From the NCBI GenBank assembly GCA_963835575.1, contig CAWIGG010000005.1, forward strand, positions 32,001 to 96,000: a stretch of 64,000 nt of DNA, given 5' to 3'. This document shows positions 1-58,569 of this stretch, piece by piece. The notes below the pieces were generated by a model. The model had not been told where the DNA came from, searched no databases, and saw only the letters and a list, made by a program, of their open reading frames with translations. Source of the DNA: an uncultured Spirochaetota bacterium. Lineage in GTDB: Bacteria > Spirochaetota > Brevinematia > Brevinematales > JAOACQ01. A program made the position numbers and the translations under genes. The stretch's first letter is position 1. Every line of letters begins with the position of its first letter.

Positions 1-150
1 CGGGATGTCCGGAAAAAAATGGAACAGGAAATTGACGATTATCTTTTTGATTTGAAGGAATCTGAAAGTATTAACCTGAATTTAAATATCATAGACAAAT
101 TGATAGAAGATATTTTACAGACTGCCATAAAGAGGAGCGCCATAGGGTGA
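1..150 (+). CDS. hsdR: C-terminal fragment of a probable type I restriction endonuclease subunit R (5' truncated by window edge)
   Basis: Frame 1 reads RDVRKKMEQEIDDYLFDLKESESINLNLNIIDKLIEDILQTAIKRSAIG*, resembling HsdR C-termini. It directly precedes a YgjP-like gene, the usual type I R-M arrangement. Confidence 0.5.
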   Translation, partial: RDVRKKMEQEIDDYLFDLKESESINLNLNIIDKLIEDILQTAIKRSAIG

Positions 151-860
151 TTCATATGGAACATACGATTAATTACGGTGACAAAGTAATCCGTTTTACT
201 ATTTTCAGATCCAATAGAAAAACTTTGGGAATTGTTGTTTATCATAATAAAACAGTTATTGTGAAAGCGCCATATGATAAAAGTGATAACGAGATTTTAG
301 AAAGAGTAAAAAAACGTTCCCGCTGGATAGTAAAACAACTGAACTATTTCAACAATTTACCTTCAGCCGATAGAGACTTTCAATATGTGAGCGGAGAAAC
401 CCACAGGTATTTAGGAAATCAATACAGGCTGAAGATAAAAAAAGGGGAAAAGAAAAGTATTAAGATGCCGAAGGGTTATTTCGAAATTGTCCACCCGGAC
501 CCGTCTAATAAAAACGATATAGCTTTTATTATGAAAGATTGGTACAGGAAAAATGCTAAAAGGAAATTCACTGAGTACCTCGAGGAATGTTTTATTAGCT
601 TTAAAAAATATGGATTGGAGTTCCCAAAACTGGAAATCAAGGAGATGAAAACCAGGTGGGGCAGCTGCAACTATAATAATAAAATAATTCTTAATCCGAA
701 TCTAGTAAAGAAGTCTCCTCTTTGTATAAAATATGTCATCACTCATGAATTATGCCATTTAAAATATTACCATCATGGTAAAGAATTCTACAAATTACTG
801 TCAAAAATCATGCCGGATTGGAAAGATAGGAAATTGAAACTGGATTACAGTGAAAATTGA
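147..860 (+). CDS. YgjP/DUF45-type (M48/SprT-like) zinc metallo-hydrolase
   Basis: RSNRKTLGI N-terminus, YVSGETHRYLG, MKTRWGSC and HELCH (HExxH). ATG at 156 is a possible start. Confidence 0.9.
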   Translation: MIHMEHTINYGDKVIRFTIFRSNRKTLGIVVYHNKTVIVKAPYDKSDNEILERVKKRSRWIVKQLNYFNNLPSADRDFQYVSGETHRYLGNQYRLKIKKGEKKSIKMPKGYFEIVHPDPSNKNDIAFIMKDWYRKNAKRKFTEYLEECFISFKKYGLEFPKLEIKEMKTRWGSCNYNNKIILNPNLVKKSPLCIKYVITHELCHLKYYHHGKEFYKLLSKIMPDWKDRKLKLDYSEN

Positions 861-1260: not shown

Positions 1261-1600
1261 CCTCCCGTTCCCGAGGCCATTTTCCTCTAAACCATAATCC
1301 GAACATCAAATTACTTGAAAAAAACTCGTGTTATCCGCTAATATAATAATGGAAGAGAAACTCAAGCTTTTGACACGGATGTCAAAACCGACGCCCAGCA
1401 CCACTTTGATTGCCTGTCCTCAAAGTGGTGCTGGGCAGGGACAGCGTAATTAAGGAGACTATTTTAATAAGGGATCGTTTTTTAACAACCGGATAACACA
1501 CCTCCATTCAATCCGGCCTCTTCGTATGAAAATGGACTCGAAAGGCGTTTTCTTTCGGTTCACTTTCTTTGTCGCCGCTTGGACAAAGAAAGTGAACAAT
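1261..1600 (-). repeat. ~340-bp multi-hairpin dispersed repeat, copy 1 (uninterrupted)
   Basis: Reverse complement aligns with 17429-19465 and 54341-58496. Shared blocks: GTTCACTTTCTTTGTC..GACAAAGAAAGTGAAC, CGAGNCCATTTTCATACG, GTGYTATCC, TTATTATA..AGCRGAT..CACGA and GAAAATGGCCTCGGG. Confidence 0.9.
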
Positions 1601-1671
1601 CCCCCGATTGTCAGTCGGGAAAAATATTCTACGTTTCCCGCCCGGATAGCCGGACAAAAAAAGGAGAAAAA

Positions 1672-17415: not shown

Positions 17416-17454
17416 GGAATTAATTGTTTTGTTCACTTTCTTTTGTTTTAATGC

Positions 17455-19133
17455 TGTTGCCTGTCGGTTTTTATAACATGCTTCATGGACATACGGCAGG
17501 GTTCCCGTTAAAATAAAACGGGAGAAAAAGATGGCAAGATTTGAAAAGAACAGCCTGGAGCAGGGTGAGTTCCTCGCGATCAATATAGGCGAGCAGTTTG
17601 ATGAGAATTCCAGAGAATTTATACTAAAAGAATTCATCAAAAACCGTATTAAACTGGAGGATTTCGCGGCTTACTATAAGAACGACCATAGAGGCAGAGA
17701 GATTAAAAATCCTCGGGATGTGATCTGTGCGGTACTCTACGGTTACATTACGGGAAATCGTATCAGCCGAAAGATAGAAGATTTGCTGAAAAAACACATT
17801 GGGTTTATGTATGTTTCAAACCGGCTGAAAATTGACCATTCGGTAATTTGCGAGTTCAAGGTACTTTTTCAGGAAAAGATCGAGGAGTTGTTCAGCCAGC
17901 TTTTATATATACTCAACGAAATGGGGTCTATAGATTGGGACATGGTAGTGGGTGACGGCACAAAGATCAAGGCCTACGCGAGTAAGAATAAGAATGTGGG
18001 AAAGAAACATACCCGGAAGCTGATGGACACTTACCAGAAGATGGCGGAAAAGATTGTGAAACAAGACCTGGAACTGGAAGAATCTTACCGGGAAGGCAAG
18101 CTGGAGCAGCCTTATTACGAAGCGGAGAAGAAGCGGGTATCAAGGCGGAAAAAGATTTACGATAGTGTTTTGAACCAAATCGATGAATACAAAAAACAGG
18201 TAGAGAGAGGGGAAAAGACAGACGAAGAATTCACCAACCTGACTGATCCCGAAAGCAAGCTGATGTCTGGAAATCCGCATAGTGTGTTTATACAGGGATA
18301 TAATTCGGCGATGATGGTCAGTAATAATGATGTGATTATAGATTTTGAAGCAATCACAACACCGGAAAAACAGCATACGGAAGAAATGGTAAAGAGGGTG
18401 GAACAGAAAAAAGCGGAATTAAAAGTTGATAAGGCTAGCAAATACCTTTTTGATTCGGGTTTTCAGGACATGGAAGAGACAATCCGGATGGTGGAGGAAG
18501 GAAAAGACCTTTATGTGGATACGAAAGAGCGGGATTTCAGTGATAAATCACAGAAGCGAAGAGACTTTAAACTGGAAAAGATTGATGACGAATATATCCT
18601 GGGATGCCGGGGCGGCCGTAAGGAAAATGGGTATTTAGATCGAAATAACCAAAGATATACATTTTTGTATTCACGGAAGGGCTGTGAAAGATGTCCATTT
18701 TTCAGTGAGTGTTATAAAAACATCAAACCGAAAACACAGCAAAAGACAGTAATTTTCAGTGAGTTTGAATTGAATAATCGGTCTAAGATTGATGCTTATT
18801 TAACAAAACTTTACAGCGAAGAAGGGCAAAAGATATACAACCGCAGGATAGGTAAAGAACACGTATTTTCAAACATCAAAACACAGAAGGGTTATGTTCA
18901 GACAGTTTACAGAGGTCAACGGAAAGTGAATTTGGAGCTATGCTGGGTATCCCTTGCGCATAATTTTATGAAATATGCCCAATATTTGAGAAAATAGAGA
19001 GGATTTTGTATAGTCTGAGTATCGATTATTCGAAATTTATTATTAAAATCAGCTAAGCTGACAAAATTTTTATTTGCCCGCTTATTGTAAGGGGCTGGTT
19101 TGACTCCGAAAATGAAATAACCGACAGGCAACA
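17455..19133 (+). mobile_element. IS1182-family insertion sequence
   Basis: 15-bp perfect TIRs TGTTGCCTGTCGGTT / AACCGACAGGCAACA. Target duplication not clearly resolved. Confidence 0.9.
17531..18997 (+). CDS. IS1182-family DDE transposase
   Basis: LYGY..SRKIE, DGTKIKA, TDPESKLM, GYN, DSGF, EHVFSNIK..RG..HN. Confidence 0.92.
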   Translation: MARFEKNSLEQGEFLAINIGEQFDENSREFILKEFIKNRIKLEDFAAYYKNDHRGREIKNPRDVICAVLYGYITGNRISRKIEDLLKKHIGFMYVSNRLKIDHSVICEFKVLFQEKIEELFSQLLYILNEMGSIDWDMVVGDGTKIKAYASKNKNVGKKHTRKLMDTYQKMAEKIVKQDLELEESYREGKLEQPYYEAEKKRVSRRKKIYDSVLNQIDEYKKQVERGEKTDEEFTNLTDPESKLMSGNPHSVFIQGYNSAMMVSNNDVIIDFEAITTPEKQHTEEMVKRVEQKKAELKVDKASKYLFDSGFQDMEETIRMVEEGKDLYVDTKERDFSDKSQKRRDFKLEKIDDEYILGCRGGRKENGYLDRNNQRYTFLYSRKGCERCPFFSECYKNIKPKTQQKTVIFSEFELNNRSKIDAYLTKLYSEEGQKIYNRRIGKEHVFSNIKTQKGYVQTVYRGQRKVNLELCWVSLAHNFMKYAQYLRK

Positions 19134-19750
19134 AGCGGTGACAAAAGAAAGTGAACCGAAAGAAAAATGCCTATTTCGAGGCCATTTTCATACGAAGCAA
19201 TCTGATAGAATGGATGTGTGCTATCCGGATGATGAATTTCGATTCCCGTTTATTATAGCCGCCTTAAAACGCCATTCCTGTCCCTCACCACTTTGTCCGG
19301 CTTAATAATCTAAGTTTATCAAAATGGTGAGAGATTACTCAGGGCAGGCCCTGCCGTAAGTATAAACTTCCTTCCTTCTATTATTATAGCAGATAGCACG
19401 ACTTGATATTGAGTTAGTTTATGTACTGATTTTGGCTAATGGAAAATGGCCTCGGGAACGGGGGAACGAGGACTTGATGGAGTAACAAATAAATTAATTA
19501 CAAAAGAGTTTAAGCAAAGAAGGAAAATATTGCATGGAATGAGATGGAAAGGCGCTGCGTCCGGCAGACAAAAATATTGTATTTAAGAGAATATTTTATT
19601 TTAATTGAGACTATAGCGCTGATCCGATCATGTGGAATTATCCGCACATTTTGCCTTTTCTCTAATTGCCTTTAACTTCAATAATCATTATATTTAGATA
19701 TATGAACAACCTTACGGCTTCTCCGGAAAAAAACCTTTAAGGAGGCGCCT

Positions 19751-27986: not shown

Positions 27987-29270
27987 GGGCGGTTTTAAAA
28001 ACCGCCTAATTTATCAACACTTCCCTGATAATAGAAAATATTTTCAAAATATTTCTGCCAACAGGTTAAAAACTGTTTCTATTACCAAAATTCAGCCAAA
28101 CACGGGCAATATTATCCATATCTTCTGTATTTTAAGCCGCACAAGACGCAATTCGACCTTTTACCACAACATACCGTGCTAAATTATAAACCAGATTCAT
28201 CAGCCCGATTTGGCTCTCTGCCCTTTCTTTTCCTATCGATCGTATTGTACTGCCGTTCATACTATTTTCAACAAAACCAAAAACATGCTCAACACGAACT
28301 CGGATGCGGCTCTTTCTTCTATTTTTTTCTTTCTGCTTCTCCGTCAATGGCTTATTTCTGTATCCTTTTTCGTGAATCCGGTTTTTCATCTCAAATTTTT
28401 CTAATATTCCTGCTACCGTTGGGCCAACATATGCGCTGTCCGCGTAAAACGGCTTCCCTTTGTCTTTCTCATTCAATAGAGGTTCAACTACCTGTGAATC
28501 GTGAACGCTCGCATCTGTCGTGACATAAGAACGAATAAGTTTTGACTTCACATCAACCTTTGTATGGTTTTTGTATCCGTAATGCCTCTCTTTATTCTTG
28601 GTCATCCAGCGCGCATCCGTGTCTTTATGGGAAAGCTTATGCGTATTATCTTTCCAATCTTCCGGAACCTCGCCTTCTTTTATTTTCTTGTTTTCTTCGC
28701 GGCTGTTCCTCTGCCGGGGAACATCCACAAAACTTGCGTCTACCATAACGCCCGCTTTCCCTATCACACCTTTATTCTCAAGATTCTCATCGAATATTTT
28801 AAAAAGTTTCTCTATTGCTTTCGCTTTCATCAGTTTTTCCTTGAATTCCCAGATTTTACTGTAGTCCGGAACTTTGTCCGAAAGTGTTATCCCAAGATAT
28901 CGCTGAACGGATAACCTGTCATTGATCTGAAATTCCGCTTGCTCATCGGAAAGATTGTAATACCTCTGGAATATCAGTATCTTGAACATGAAAACATAGT
29001 CATAATGTGGCGCTCCGCCCGGCGCCTTCTGCTCTTTCGGCGCCAAAATCTCTGTTAACAGCGGCCGGAACATCTCAAAGTCTACAACCCTGTTAAGCTT
29101 ATCCAGCGGTGTTTTTACGCCGCTTAGCTTTTCCATCCGCTCCTGATATTCAAACAAGTTACGGTCTTTCCGCTTAATTTTTGTCATAGCCTTACCTCTG
29201 TTTTCTTTGACTATGATTATATGTTTTTATATACTATTTGTATATGATACGTGGGTTTTTCAAACCGCCC
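27987..29270 (-). mobile_element. IS5-family element, copy 1 (1284 bp)
   Basis: TIRs GGGCGGTTTTAAAAACC / GGTTTTTCAAACCGCCC; TTAT target duplication. Confidence 0.95.
28132..29187 (-). CDS. IS5-family transposase
   Basis: YNLSDEQAE, VPD, VDAS, DTDARW, YGYKNH, ADSAY, RVRVEHVF. Confidence 0.95.
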   Translation of the reverse strand: MTKIKRKDRNLFEYQERMEKLSGVKTPLDKLNRVVDFEMFRPLLTEILAPKEQKAPGGAPHYDYVFMFKILIFQRYYNLSDEQAEFQINDRLSVQRYLGITLSDKVPDYSKIWEFKEKLMKAKAIEKLFKIFDENLENKGVIGKAGVMVDASFVDVPRQRNSREENKKIKEGEVPEDWKDNTHKLSHKDTDARWMTKNKERHYGYKNHTKVDVKSKLIRSYVTTDASVHDSQVVEPLLNEKDKGKPFYADSAYVGPTVAGILEKFEMKNRIHEKGYRNKPLTEKQKEKNRRKSRIRVRVEHVFGFVENSMNGSTIRSIGKERAESQIGLMNLVYNLARYVVVKGRIASCAA

Positions 29271-29875: not shown

Positions 29876-30060
29876 AGCCAGGAATTGAAGTAGTCAACCG
29901 AATTTCCAATTATGACGTAGAACTGGAGCCGGACATTACCCGGGTCCAGCCCAATGATTTTATTGAGGAAATAAACAAGAAAAACTTCATCGCCGATATG
30001 TCCATCGGCGAACTGCCCATTGAAAGCATTATCAAGGAGCTTTATCTGCATAAAAGGTAA
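29876..30060 (+). repeat. Duplicate of ABC ATPase 3' end (copy C, in frame, no start)
   Basis: Translates KPGIEVVNRISNYDVELEPDITRVQPNDFIEEINKKNFIADMSIGELPIESIIKELYLHKR*. Confidence 0.95.
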
Positions 30061-30130
30061 CACATTTGTTCACTTTCTTTTGTCCCCAACCAGTAACTCA
30101 GAATTCAGGTATTACCTGTATTTCTTTTTT

Positions 30131-43928: not shown

Positions 43929-45212
43929 GGGCGGTTTTAAAAACCGCCTAATTTATCAACACTTCCCTGATAATAGAAAATATTTTAAAAATATTTCTGC
44001 CAACAGGTTAAAAACTGTTTCTATTACCAAAATTCAGCCAAACACGGGCAATATTATCCATATCTTCTGTATTTTAAGCCGCACAAGACGCAATTCGACC
44101 TTTTACCACAACATACCGTGCTAAATTATAAACCAGATTCATCAGCCCGATTTGGCTCTCTGCCCTTTCTTTTCCTATCGATCGTATTGTACTGCCGTTC
44201 ATACTATTTTCAACAAAACCAAAAACATGCTCAACACGAACTCGGATGCGGCTCTTTCTTCTATTTTTTTCTTTCTGCTTCTCCGTCAATGGCTTATTTC
44301 TGTATCCTTTTTCGTGAATCCGGTTTTTCATCTCAAATTTTTCTAATATTCCTGCTACCGTTGGGCCAACATATGCGCTGTCCGCGTAAAACGGCTTCCC
44401 TTTGTCTTTCTCATTCAATAGAGGTTCAACTACCTGTGAATCGTGAACGCTCGCATCTGTCGTGACATAAGAACGAATAAGTTTTGACTTCACATCAACC
44501 TTTGTATGGTTTTTGTATCCGTAATGCCTCTCTTTATTCTTGGTCATCCAGCGCGCATCCGTGTCTTTATGGGAAAGCTTATGCGTATTATCTTTCCAAT
44601 CTTCCGGAACCTCGCCTTCTTTTATTTTCTTGTTTTCTTCGCGGCTGTTCCTCTGCCGGGGAACATCCACAAAACTTGCGTCTACCATAACGCCCGCTTT
44701 CCCTATCACACCTTTATTCTCAAGATTCTCATCGAATATTTTAAAAAGTTTCTCTATTGCTTTCGCTTTCGTCAGTTTTTCCTTGAATTCCCAGATTTTA
44801 CTGTAGTCCGGAACTTTGTCCGAAAGTGTTATCCCAAGATATCGCTGAACGGATAACCTGTCATTGATCTGAAATTCCGCTTGCTCATCGGAAAGATTGT
44901 AATACCTCTGGAATATCAGTATCTTGAACATGAAAACATAGTCATAATGTGGCGCTCCGCCCGGCGCCTTCTGCTCTTTCGGCGCCAAAATCTCTGTTAA
45001 CAGCGGCCGGAACATCTCAAAGTCTACAACCCTGTTAAGCTTATCCAGCGGTGTTTTTACGCCGCTTAGCTTTTCCATCCGCTCCTGATATTCAAACAAG
45101 TTACGGTCTTTCCGCTTAATTTTTGTCATAGCCTTACCTCTGTTTTCTTTGACTATGATTATATGTTTTTATATACTATTTGTATATGATACGTGGGTTT
45201 TTCAAACCGCCC
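43929..45212 (-). mobile_element. IS5-family element, copy 2 (1284 bp)
   Basis: Same TIRs as copy 1; ATAT target duplication; only two differences from copy 1 noticed. Confidence 0.95.
44074..45129 (-). CDS. IS5-family transposase
   Basis: Identical to 28132-29187 except KLTK versus KLMK. Confidence 0.95.
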   Translation of the reverse strand: MTKIKRKDRNLFEYQERMEKLSGVKTPLDKLNRVVDFEMFRPLLTEILAPKEQKAPGGAPHYDYVFMFKILIFQRYYNLSDEQAEFQINDRLSVQRYLGITLSDKVPDYSKIWEFKEKLTKAKAIEKLFKIFDENLENKGVIGKAGVMVDASFVDVPRQRNSREENKKIKEGEVPEDWKDNTHKLSHKDTDARWMTKNKERHYGYKNHTKVDVKSKLIRSYVTTDASVHDSQVVEPLLNEKDKGKPFYADSAYVGPTVAGILEKFEMKNRIHEKGYRNKPLTEKQKEKNRRKSRIRVRVEHVFGFVENSMNGSTIRSIGKERAESQIGLMNLVYNLARYVVVKGRIASCAA

Positions 45213-54334: not shown

Positions 54335-54512
54335 GGGTCAGCGTTCTTTTCTTTCTTTTTTTGAAAAAAATGAAAGAAAAGAACGCAGGAAAAGAAAGAA
54401 AAAAACTTCGAGACCATTTTCATACGGAGCTATCTTATAGTATGGATATGTGCTATCCAGCTGATAAATCTTGATTCCAGTTTAATAATAGCCGCCTTAT
54501 TACGCCGTCCCT

Positions 54513-56328
54513 GATACCGCTGAAAAATGGCACCTTTACAAAAACCGATTTCCTTAGATAACTTCAAGATTTAAAAAATTGAACACTTGAAGACACAAAA
54601 ACAAAAATGACGCCAAATCCAAATAAAAGTAGATGATTCTACTTCATAATTCCCTTAATTCATCTCTAAAACTAACTTTTTGACAAATCTCTTTAAATTT
54701 AAAGCACAGGCTGCCATGTAATATTGCTGAGAACGGCCTGATTCTCCTTTATATTTCATCATTCTTAAACCATGAAATCGAACCAGTGCGCTTATCGTCG
54801 ATTCAACTTGTGCCCGAACTTTCATTTCTTCTTTAAATTTATCGGTCTTTTGTTCTTCTCTCCGCTTGCACAAAGTTGTGTATTCTTTTGTGATACATAA
54901 TTTTCGCCCCCCGCACTTTTTACTTGTTCTTCTGACACATAACCCATAATTTATACAATTTCCGCATGTTTCATGTGAAAGGACACTTGATACGAATTAC
55001 TTTTCTCACTAAAATTCCAGGAATCATTCGTCTTTCCTGCCGGACAGACAGCTTTCCGGTTTTGAATATCTATTGAAAATTTATCCAATCTGAATTCTGC
55101 CGGAACTTCGTTTGAAGTTTTTTGTATATATCCCATCAGTACCTGGTCTTTATCTTCATATTCTTTAATCGCGCTGCTGCTGATATAATTGCTATCCGCA
55201 AAGATTTTCTTCGGATTTAATTTTGAATTTTCATTCCTTCTATCCAATTCCGGTAATATTTTATTGTCATTTTCCTTGTTTGATTGTGGTATCATATCAA
55301 CTATGAAATTCACCTCGCCTTTGTTTGCTGTTTCAACGATATGGCATTTCTCGCCTGACCAGCTTGTTTTTCCTTTCTTTCCTAATTGAATGGTTGTATC
55401 CCGCGGGTCAATTACGCTCTGCATCGGCTTTTCTATTTCATCCACTTCTATAAACACTTTTTCACCTACTTCTTTTTCTCGAATGATCACATTTTCCTGA
55501 AATACGGTTTTCATTATTTTTAGCTGTTTCAAGACTTCTTCATTTTCTATCTTAGAACCCTCAATCATCCGCGTTATTCGATAGCCATCTTCCACAATCT
55601 CCGCCTGCTTGTCCGATCTCTTCCCCTTTGACATCCCGAATGAACTGAATTTCTTTGAGTAGCGTTCAATCAAATCCGCTGGAATATTTTCTTCATACCA
55701 CACGGGATTATTTCTTTCTAATACTTCCAGTAATACTCGCACAGTTCTGAAGAGTAGTTCTGTCGTTGATATCCGGTTTAAATGTTTTACAATATGAGTC
55801 GCGTCAATACGCTGGTGTGAATTACTTTTAATCAAACCTTTTTCCCGGCAAAACTCCACCATTTTCTTAAAGGCGTTATTTTCTTCTCCATTATTCCGAA
55901 AACGCTTTCTGAAATTACAGAGTGTGCTAGAGTCAAAAATGAAAACTTTCTCGATCGGCAAATGTAATGCGTATTTCCAATCCAGCCGCAAATACACAGC
56001 TTCCGCTGCTTCTGAGTCTGACAGAGAATCAAAATATTGCAGAATGGTAACCATTGATAGAAATGCCGGTGATATTCCATTGCGTCCTTTCCTGGAGTAT
56101 AAATGTTTAAAATCCCCATCATGAAATATGGGATATATTTCCCTGGAAAATATCTTTAATGGGTTTGTTTCTTCAAGTAAATCCGACATCAAATTAGTTA
56201 CCGAATATAGTTCATCCTGGCTATGTCTTTTTAAACTCATTTTATTACCCTGCAATTAATTATGTTAAATATTATGACACATTAATATAATTACAGCAAT
56301 GTATGTTAATGCATTTTTCAGCGGTATC
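54513..56328 (-). mobile_element. IS1182-family insertion sequence (second type)
   Basis: 17-bp perfect TIRs GATACCGCTGAAAAATG / CATTTTTCAGCGGTATC; flanks GTCCCT and GTCCAT (6-bp duplication, 1 mismatch). Confidence 0.9.
54655..56255 (-). pseudogene. IS1182-family transposase, frameshifted near 54978
   Basis: LSDSEAAE, DWKYALHL, RIDATH, ADSNY, CPAGK. Continues in another frame as HETCGNC...RAQVESTIS...HGLR..KYKG...NLKR. Confidence 0.85.
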
Positions 56329-56349
56329 GTCCATAGCTTTAGGCGGCGG

Positions 56350-58388
<2,039 letters not shown>

Positions 58389-58569
58389 CCGCAAACATGT
58401 GTCTTCTCTCTTCTATTATTATAGCGGATGACACGACTATATATTGAGATATTTGGTGTTCAGATTATGGTTAATGGAAAATGGCCTCGGGTACGGACAA
58501 TTTGTTGAGAGGCTTTTTGATTATCATTCTTTTCATGGAAAAATATTCTTTAACAGAAATTTAAACTAC

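Follow-up and report, generated by a model that had tools for sequence, protein, structure and literature searches.

Copies of the repeat in the window

The window, that is the whole stretch of 64,000 nucleotides analysed here (G000:C5:32001-96000, G000 being the 4.39-Mb, 94% complete source genome), contains three copies of a dispersed repeat and a stub, all of which were located again at the places given by an earlier note made from the letters of the window (Table 1). The motifs quoted in that note and the co-varying arms of its 'leading hairpin' are present in the sequence, and both IS1182-like elements and the group II intron of the window lie inside copies 2 and 3 (Table 1). The position given for copy 1 was correct but its length was not, the element running about 20 nt further because the terminal hairpin is part of it. 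The strand also had to be reversed, as the GGA hairpins and the core are read on the opposite strand, on which copy 1 has the plus orientation and the 'leading hairpin' is a 3' module. A start close to a stop codon had been remarked on and is indeed found for copy 2 (a gap of 15 nt), copy 3 (6 nt) and the stub (7 nt), but it is no rule of the family; among 34 copies the gene adjoining that same side occurs in either orientation, 16 versus 18. All copies of the element are intergenic.

Table 1. The repeat, its parts and its passengers, in positions of the window unless a contig is named
Feature	Position	Strand	Remarks
Copy 1, whole element	1265..1619	+	RNA-like strand; own model 114 bits at 1325-1502
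Outer stem P1, 5' arm	1272..1284	+	partner 1528-1540
Basal stem P2, 5' arm	1328..1337	+	partner 1490-1499
Conserved TATAAT word	1342..1347	+	possible -10 box, no recognisable -35
GGA hairpin 1	1368..1387	+	AYGGAY loop at 1375-1380; intron target in other copies
REP-like hairpin	1393..1436	not assigned	inserted in GGA loop 2
GGA loop 2, remainder	1437..1442	+
Basal stem P2, 3' arm	1490..1499	+
Outer stem P1, 3' arm	1528..1540	+
Predicted triple-helix module	1548..1597	+	'leading hairpin' of the earlier note; pyrimidine strand 1548-1556, hairpin 1558-1573 with 1582-1597
Terminal small hairpin	1601..1619	+	followed by A run
YgjP-like gene	147..860	+	final gene in the type I restriction-modification cluster between copy 1 and an inverted copy
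Inverted partner of copy 1	G000:C5:22655-22907		10.4 kb upstream, outside the window
Copy 2	17431..19461	-	nested REP-like hairpins replace both GGA loops
IS-A, IS1182-like	17456..19131	+	488-aa transposase at 17531-18997; sits in the hairpin loop of the triple-helix module in copy 2
Stub	30068..30086	-	single arm of the triple-helix hairpin, just past a stop codon
Copy 3	54341..58496	-
IS-B, IS1182-like	54514..56327	-	434-aa transposase at 54951-56255; in GGA loop 2 of copy 3
Group II intron	56364..58388	+	RT/maturase at 56835-58202; at GGA hairpin 1 of copy 3

Other features of the window include a frame that stops just before the stub (29900-30060), for which no start was identified and which resembles a detached 3' gene end, and two IS5-family elements (28132-29187 and 44074-45129), with about 22 copies in the genome, that lie at AT-rich sites outside the repeat. 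A family of hairpins of about 50 bp starting CCCTCACCA has dozens of copies genome-wide, nested inside other repeats (e.g. window 19282-19335).

Structure and covariation of the element

A profile search of the genome gave 43 matches, which reduce to 34 type-1 loci as defined by the right-end word, and with three type-2 copies in addition the copy-number check proposed in the earlier note was borne out. The type-2 copies are a second subfamily, with different stem sequences and an unchanged layout. The suggestion of a non-coding, multi-copy, structured element is supported. Copy 1 has a better fold than every one of 100 dinucleotide shuffles (z -5.8 as RNA, -7.2 as DNA).

Read from 5' to 3' on the RNA-like strand, the element consists of a short 5' word, P1, P2, the word TATAAT, two apical hairpins with GGA loops and the 3' arms of P2 and P1, followed in the 3' part by a pyrimidine tract, the 'leading hairpin' and a small terminal hairpin with a run of A. 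The commonest terminal hairpin in G000 (e.g. window 1601-1619) has a 9-base word in common with the inverted repeat of IS-A, and the terminal hairpins of relatives differ from it.

In the copies without inserts (12 of 34), 97.9% of core cells are paired. When these 12 copies are aligned without fitting to a model, both sides change in 5 of 24 pairs; 97 of 500 shuffles equal that count, and none of 500 reaches the covariation score. A covariance model was built from the 12 uninterrupted copies and, in an alignment of 28 sequences that is fitted to this model and leans towards it, 22 of 24 core pairs change on both sides. The covariation that the earlier note proposed to look for is therefore found in the core stems but not in the outer closing stem P1, which is almost invariant within this subfamily and has no compensatory change, 11 of its 13 pairs never varying. 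Between subfamilies the sequence of P1 differs, with pairing retained.

The near invariance of P1 within the subfamily is like that of protein-bound ends and the genome is rich in IS elements, thus the repeat might be seen as an ordinary MITE, with the 13-bp inverted repeat P1 as its ends and a DDE transposase to move it. This is very improbable. A MITE would end in its terminal inverted repeats and have a target-site duplication, whereas conserved sequence continues past P1 on both sides and no target duplication is seen; P1 also bears no resemblance to the ends of four IS types with which it was compared, and its sequence shifts between subfamilies whilst its pairing is kept.

GGA is present in both loops of all 28 aligned copies and the strict AYGGAY in nine copies in loop 1 and nine in loop 2, the others being mostly ANGGAY or ±1 base. 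Tandem GA/GA pairs occur in 14 of the 28 copies, and Watson-Crick pairs are found instead in 10.

Two relatives carry homologues, 8 in G006 and 16 in G009 (24 in all), both of which belong to another genus of the same family. Searches with the covariance model found the element to be absent from the other 38 of 40 relatives, including four genomes of the same genus as G000, and, under stricter filters, from a sample of 150 genomes of the phylum. Within the element the two halves have uncorrelated histories (Mantel r 0.02 over 29 copies, against 0.58 and 0.41 for the odd/even control within each half), therefore the copies recombine. At a further locus (G000:C2:1014290-1014345, L051) a tail hairpin is flanked on both sides by halves of the terminal hairpin, 1.3 kb from a copy that is missing its tail hairpin, an arrangement that suggests a rearrangement between two copies.

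Relation to TwoAYGGAY

The earlier note could not assign the repeat to a named family, a statement that no longer holds, as the core read on the opposite strand shows two hairpins with GGA loops, arranged as in the TwoAYGGAY RNA motif (Rfam RF01731; Weinberg et al. 2010, PMC2864571), and gives a weak full-length match to the Rfam model. Of the Rfam check that had been proposed, a full-length alignment to RF01731 was obtained, but with scores of 24-37 bits that lie under the gathering threshold of 43 bits. Two of the six uninterrupted G000 loci tested align over the full length with both loops in register (25.4 and 23.7 bits), and loci in the relatives score 37.2, 35.3 and 30.7 bits, all below the cut-off. 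Rfam gave no match to the repeat in the window at gathering level or in copy 1 at E<=5, its silence on copy 1 being due to the insertion in loop 2, and a genome-wide search with RF01731 found nothing.

Among 120 loci drawn by loop pattern from a viral collection, three are Pseudomonas-type members of RF01731 above the cut-off (58.9 bits), with the same order of parts downstream and a shorter tail; searched with our own covariance model, Pseudomonas-type RF01731 loci gave no match at E<=1. For Pseudomonas repeats there is also the name R200, which was not found in PMC3116915.

Pseudomonadota are described as having an extended form of TwoAYGGAY, in which the basal stem is long, a '3' pseudoknot' is present and REP arrays stand at a fixed position (Li et al., bioRxiv 10.64898/2026.09.22.753630). 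It is present in up to 202 copies and forms divergent doublets, and its function and mode of spread are left unresolved by the preprint, as far as its main text goes. The element in G000 has in common with TwoAYGGAY and this extended form the two GGA-loop hairpins on a basal stem, the tandem GA pairs described for the motif (PMC4333381) and the order of parts, in which an elongated basal stem is followed by a paired 3' module and then by the terminal hairpin. The basal stem covaries in both alignments, the second of which was fitted to our own model. It also resembles the extended form in its many copies per genome, its patchy distribution among relatives, its REP-like repeats at fixed positions and its divergent pairs.

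The differences are that the element scores below the Rfam cut-off and lies in a lineage other than those that the cited text names, that its loops are targeted by IS and intron passengers, and that in its 3' module, described in the main text of the preprint as a pseudoknot (10.64898/2026.09.22.753630), 8-12 triples are matched and the covariation is that of a parallel third strand. Furthermore, pairs of copies can here enclose defence operons of 10 kb, whereas in the doublets of the extended form the distance is about 250 bp. Close divergent doublets of that size are absent among the 37 copies, in which neighbours less than 30 kb apart form four inward-facing, two outward-facing and six tandem pairs, and G009 has one divergent pair at 1.25 kb. 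Given full-length alignments, albeit sub-threshold, and the same order of parts, the element probably works like extended TwoAYGGAY and is probably homologous to it, although it fails the formal Rfam threshold. It likely belongs, in diverged form, to the extended class, and is a variant within an orphan class already known, not an element of a new kind.

It may be that the predicted fold forms in the cell and that the GGA loops bind CsrA, as has been proposed for TwoAYGGAY (PMC4333381). Taken further, the copies could be small RNAs kept by the host as CsrA sponges, which do not transpose and which multiply and collect cargo only as portable homology for recombination with incoming DNA. The CsrA word CANGGANG has 11 full loop matches on the RNA-like strand and none on the other in 24 uninterrupted copies, csrA is present in G000 and G006, the TATAAT ahead of hairpin 1 is conserved and the halves are mosaic, all of which would fit. 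This explanation is nevertheless unlikely, as csrA is also carried by three same-genus genomes that do not have the element, one or both loops are broken by insertions in many copies and arrival at new sites calls for more than recombination. As to the binding of CsrA itself, the distance between the GGA motifs is about 29 nt, more than the 18 nt cited as the optimum for a CsrA dimer (PMC4894983).

A predicted triple helix in the tail

The tail is predicted from its sequence to form a triple helix. The tract beside the tail hairpin is the mirror image of the purine arm of that hairpin, thus the module has the hairpin with a homopurine arm and the mirror third strand that characterise an intrastrand triplex repeat. 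Among 55 loci from three genomes the hairpin is intact in 38, which give 23 distinct tract/arm types, and the parallel match that a triple helix uses is longer than the antiparallel match in 16 of these types, equal in seven and shorter in none. The mean parallel match is 9.9 nt, a value reached by none of 5000 partner shuffles (shuffle mean 7.7), although the copies are related and the 23 types are thus not 23 independent events. Changes in the U-rich flank keep register with those in the stem, which a triple helix would require.

A hairpin with a mirror-image third segment, within a dispersed intergenic repeat, is likewise found in BoxC, PIT and TM-ECO (Holder et al. 2015, PMC4666352). BoxC is a stand-alone, G/C-rich sequence of 34-37 nt with a 3-nt turn (PMC4666352), whereas the module here is A/T-rich, has an extra 5-bp covarying stem below the triples and forms the tail of a 350-bp element. 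A literature search found no paper on a triplex tail, and the main text of the preprint on extended TwoAYGGAY makes no mention of a triplex, though its supplement may bear on the point (10.64898/2026.09.22.753630).

The pyrimidine tract is on the same strand as the GGA loops, and triplexes of the pyrimidine type are possible in RNA, those of the purine type not (PMC4666352). The element could on these grounds be a SINE-like retroelement, its RNA copied in trans by a reverse transcriptase such as the enzyme of the resident group II intron, with the triple helix protecting or presenting the 3' end. The A run after the terminal hairpin and the intact RT gene in four intron copies are consistent with this, but no target duplication is found, no excess of 5'-truncated copies was noted and the cargo on the 5' side is left unexplained. 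Such a route is unlikely, rather more so than host-kept small RNAs.

The tail module is also found at the end of unrelated cores, namely in genomes of the same genus, in an element of Oscillospiraceae and on a contig of Bacteroidota. In G002, G004 and G009 (L002, L003, L007, L008, L009) it closes other long fold-back cores that do not have the two GGA loops. The Oscillospiraceae contigs (L031-L046) carry an element of 320-380 bp, with 13-bp terminal inverted repeats and 26 and 23 end matches in one genome, in which the triple-helix module sits within a different core. Oscillospiraceae and Bacteroidota loci with the tail word were rejected as the same element, as their cores fail our own model. 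Scans for the exact pattern found only 2 chance matches, both coding, in metagenomes and only 9 weak chance matches in plasmids, and the tail word was absent from viral contigs. A small peptide encoded by the tail was considered on inspection and dropped, there being no conserved start or ribosome site.

Passengers in the loops

The earlier note regarded the repeat as a shared landing pad for mobile elements. This holds for IS-B, for the intron and for the REP-like hairpins, but only in part overall since IS-A, although enriched in the repeat, is mostly elsewhere (20 of 24 copies). Whether these passengers insert independently of the repeat, which had been put forward as a check, therefore has a different answer for each. 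IS-A has 24 full copies, four of which, with one remnant, are in the tail hairpin, the others being at T-run/A-run sites elsewhere; in G006 and G009 the loop of the tail hairpin holds relatives of IS-A, about 50% identical, at 3 of 24 loci. Five of the six copies of IS-B are in GGA loops (four in loop 2, one in loop 1 of a type-2 copy) and one is outside, whilst the group II intron has three of its four copies at GGA hairpin 1, one elsewhere, and an intact RT gene in all four. The final six bases of the 5' exon have their complement in a candidate EBS1 loop of the intron, and the three unfilled full target sites in the genome are all inside elements. REP-like hairpins are found in loop 2 of 11 of the 34 copies and in loop 1 of seven. 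A further element, which from its ends we take to be IS1380-like, has one of 11 copies inside the repeat, as chance allows.

Measured against the non-coding footprint, the binomial p values for passengers are 9e-4, 1e-8 and 2e-5. These overstate the case, because no more than two of the five in-element IS-B insertions have matching duplications and identical halves recur among the occupied copies, some of which arose through recombination of one copy with another and not by fresh insertion. IS-A mostly has duplications of 3-4 bp, and those of IS-B are 7-8 bp at GGA-loop words. Another member of the IS1182 family, IS1272, targets inverted repeats (PMC5678879), and the landing of IS1182-family elements in stem-loops is thus similar here, but IS-A prefers T-run/A-run sites genome-wide and IS-B prefers GGA-loop words. 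The landing pad is then probably a by-product, in which the loop words match the target words of IS-B and the intron and the tail hairpin suits the T-run/A-run preference of IS-A, with occupied copies subsequently spreading through recombination.

Polarity towards defence genes

The two ends of the element differ in their neighbours. The gene next to the 5' end is of restriction-modification, toxin-antitoxin or other defence type at 13 of 33 loci, compared with 1 of 29 at the tail end (p 0.0007), where defence type was assigned by eye from Pfam names and the tail-end count omits three loci with an IS-A neighbour and two short doubtful frames, two duplicate rows also being ignored. The 5' count becomes 14 of 33 if an IS66 transposase is included, and p is 0.007 with a strict list of 10 and 0.012 with transposases counted on both sides. 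In G006 and G009 the same polarity is seen (6 of 23 versus 0 of 21, p 0.02, with three IS1182 neighbours omitted), which with a strict list of four is not significant (4 of 23 versus 0 of 21, p 0.11).

Comparison with same-genus genomes places some copies at the edges of inserted DNA. An insertion of 6.7 kb after ksgA and one of 9.6 kb before asd each begin with a copy at the edge of the core gene; the far edges of both islands, the two short ones that were mapped by synteny, have no copy. A 44-kb variable region beside lpxD takes in the left half of the window. Two inverted pairs with 5' ends inward, about 10 kb apart, enclose complete systems. One lies exactly to either side of a type I-E CRISPR-Cas locus (G000:C2:809102-819921, L271), the array of which has one duplicated spacer, and the other, with copy 1 of the window as one end, encloses a type I restriction system that also has PDC-M04 genes. 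Two of the four inward-facing pairs of less than 30 kb span core genes, as recognised from sequence, hence pairing around cargo is not general. A separate locus (G000:C5:410121-410348, L241) has a type IIG restriction-modification protein of 1207 aa with an in-frame segment like a Y1 transposase, with a REP-like palindrome before it.

As one end tends to face anti-phage genes, it is likely that the element marks acquired defence DNA or helps to carry it. A stronger version is that elements of the TwoAYGGAY type are the directional ends of an as yet undescribed cargo-carrying mobile unit, with the tail outermost and the 5' end facing the cargo, such that whole defence systems, a complete CRISPR-Cas locus among them, travel with a single end or with an inverted pair by means of an enzyme provided in trans. 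This we put forward as a tentative idea that is rather more doubtful than not.

Mode of spread

The earlier note proposed a non-autonomous mobile element or a structured ncRNA. The structured and non-coding nature of the repeat stands, and its mobility is deduced from copy number and patchy distribution. A linked transposase, which had been suggested as something to look for, was not found, and no enzyme gene of any kind recurs beside 58 copies apart from the transposases of passengers. Across 55 loci there is no direct repeat of at least 12 nt flanking the element, and no direct or inverted repeat of the flanks, nor target or hairpin duplication, above mismatched controls. DNA searches at genus distance obtained no empty site at the level of single bases. 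Counts of G-U (10) and A-C (8) cells favour neither strand.

Several enzymes were considered as mobiliser and rejected. RAYT-like genes occur in three genomes that do not have the element and were not found in G009, which is 57% complete and has 16 copies; one of four such genes has a copy 41 bp away, and their presence does not track the element in 12 genomes. GIY-YIG genes have no link to it; at one place (G000:C4:1026600-1027500) an extended array of related palindromic repeats comes after such a gene. An HNH gene between the G009 pair has a broken start, was found in no other genome among 35 and has 11 viral relatives that are without the element nearby.

Like REPINs (Bertels and Rainey 2011, PMC3116915; Di Nocera et al. 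2013, PMC3733652), the element is a non-autonomous structured repeat that is extragenic, forms inverted doublets and is a target for other elements. In comparison with REPINs as these papers describe them, it is not defined by a GTAG or CGTC tag and is far longer, and a cognate RAYT that is flanked by the repeat and co-occurs with it, which would place it among REPINs, is not seen.

With moderate confidence, the best overall explanation is a multi-copy non-coding TwoAYGGAY-like repeat with a tail predicted to form a triple helix, which likely moves non-autonomously as a single strand and tends to have its 5' end against defence genes. The element would spread in single-stranded form with the help of an enzyme encoded elsewhere, and cargo would be gained at the 5' end, partly through recombination between copies. 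Folded ends, the lack of duplications and the occurrence of inverted pairs lead us to prefer single-strand cutting and joining of the HUH/REPIN kind as the likeliest single route, if somewhat short of an even chance.

Significance for the family

TwoAYGGAY is an orphan RNA family, and its spread and function become testable in G000 by way of the three-way covariation of the tail, from which a triple helix is predicted, the polarity and the targeting of GGA loops by two unrelated mobile elements. What this genome adds is the loop-specific targeting by intron and IS, tail covariation and polarity that have been quantified, and a pair of copies with an entire CRISPR-Cas system between them. Should the polarity be due to transport, the element would offer a route for the exchange of defence systems without a linked integrase. 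If it is due to recombination hot spots alone, it would still explain why repeats of this type gather insertions.
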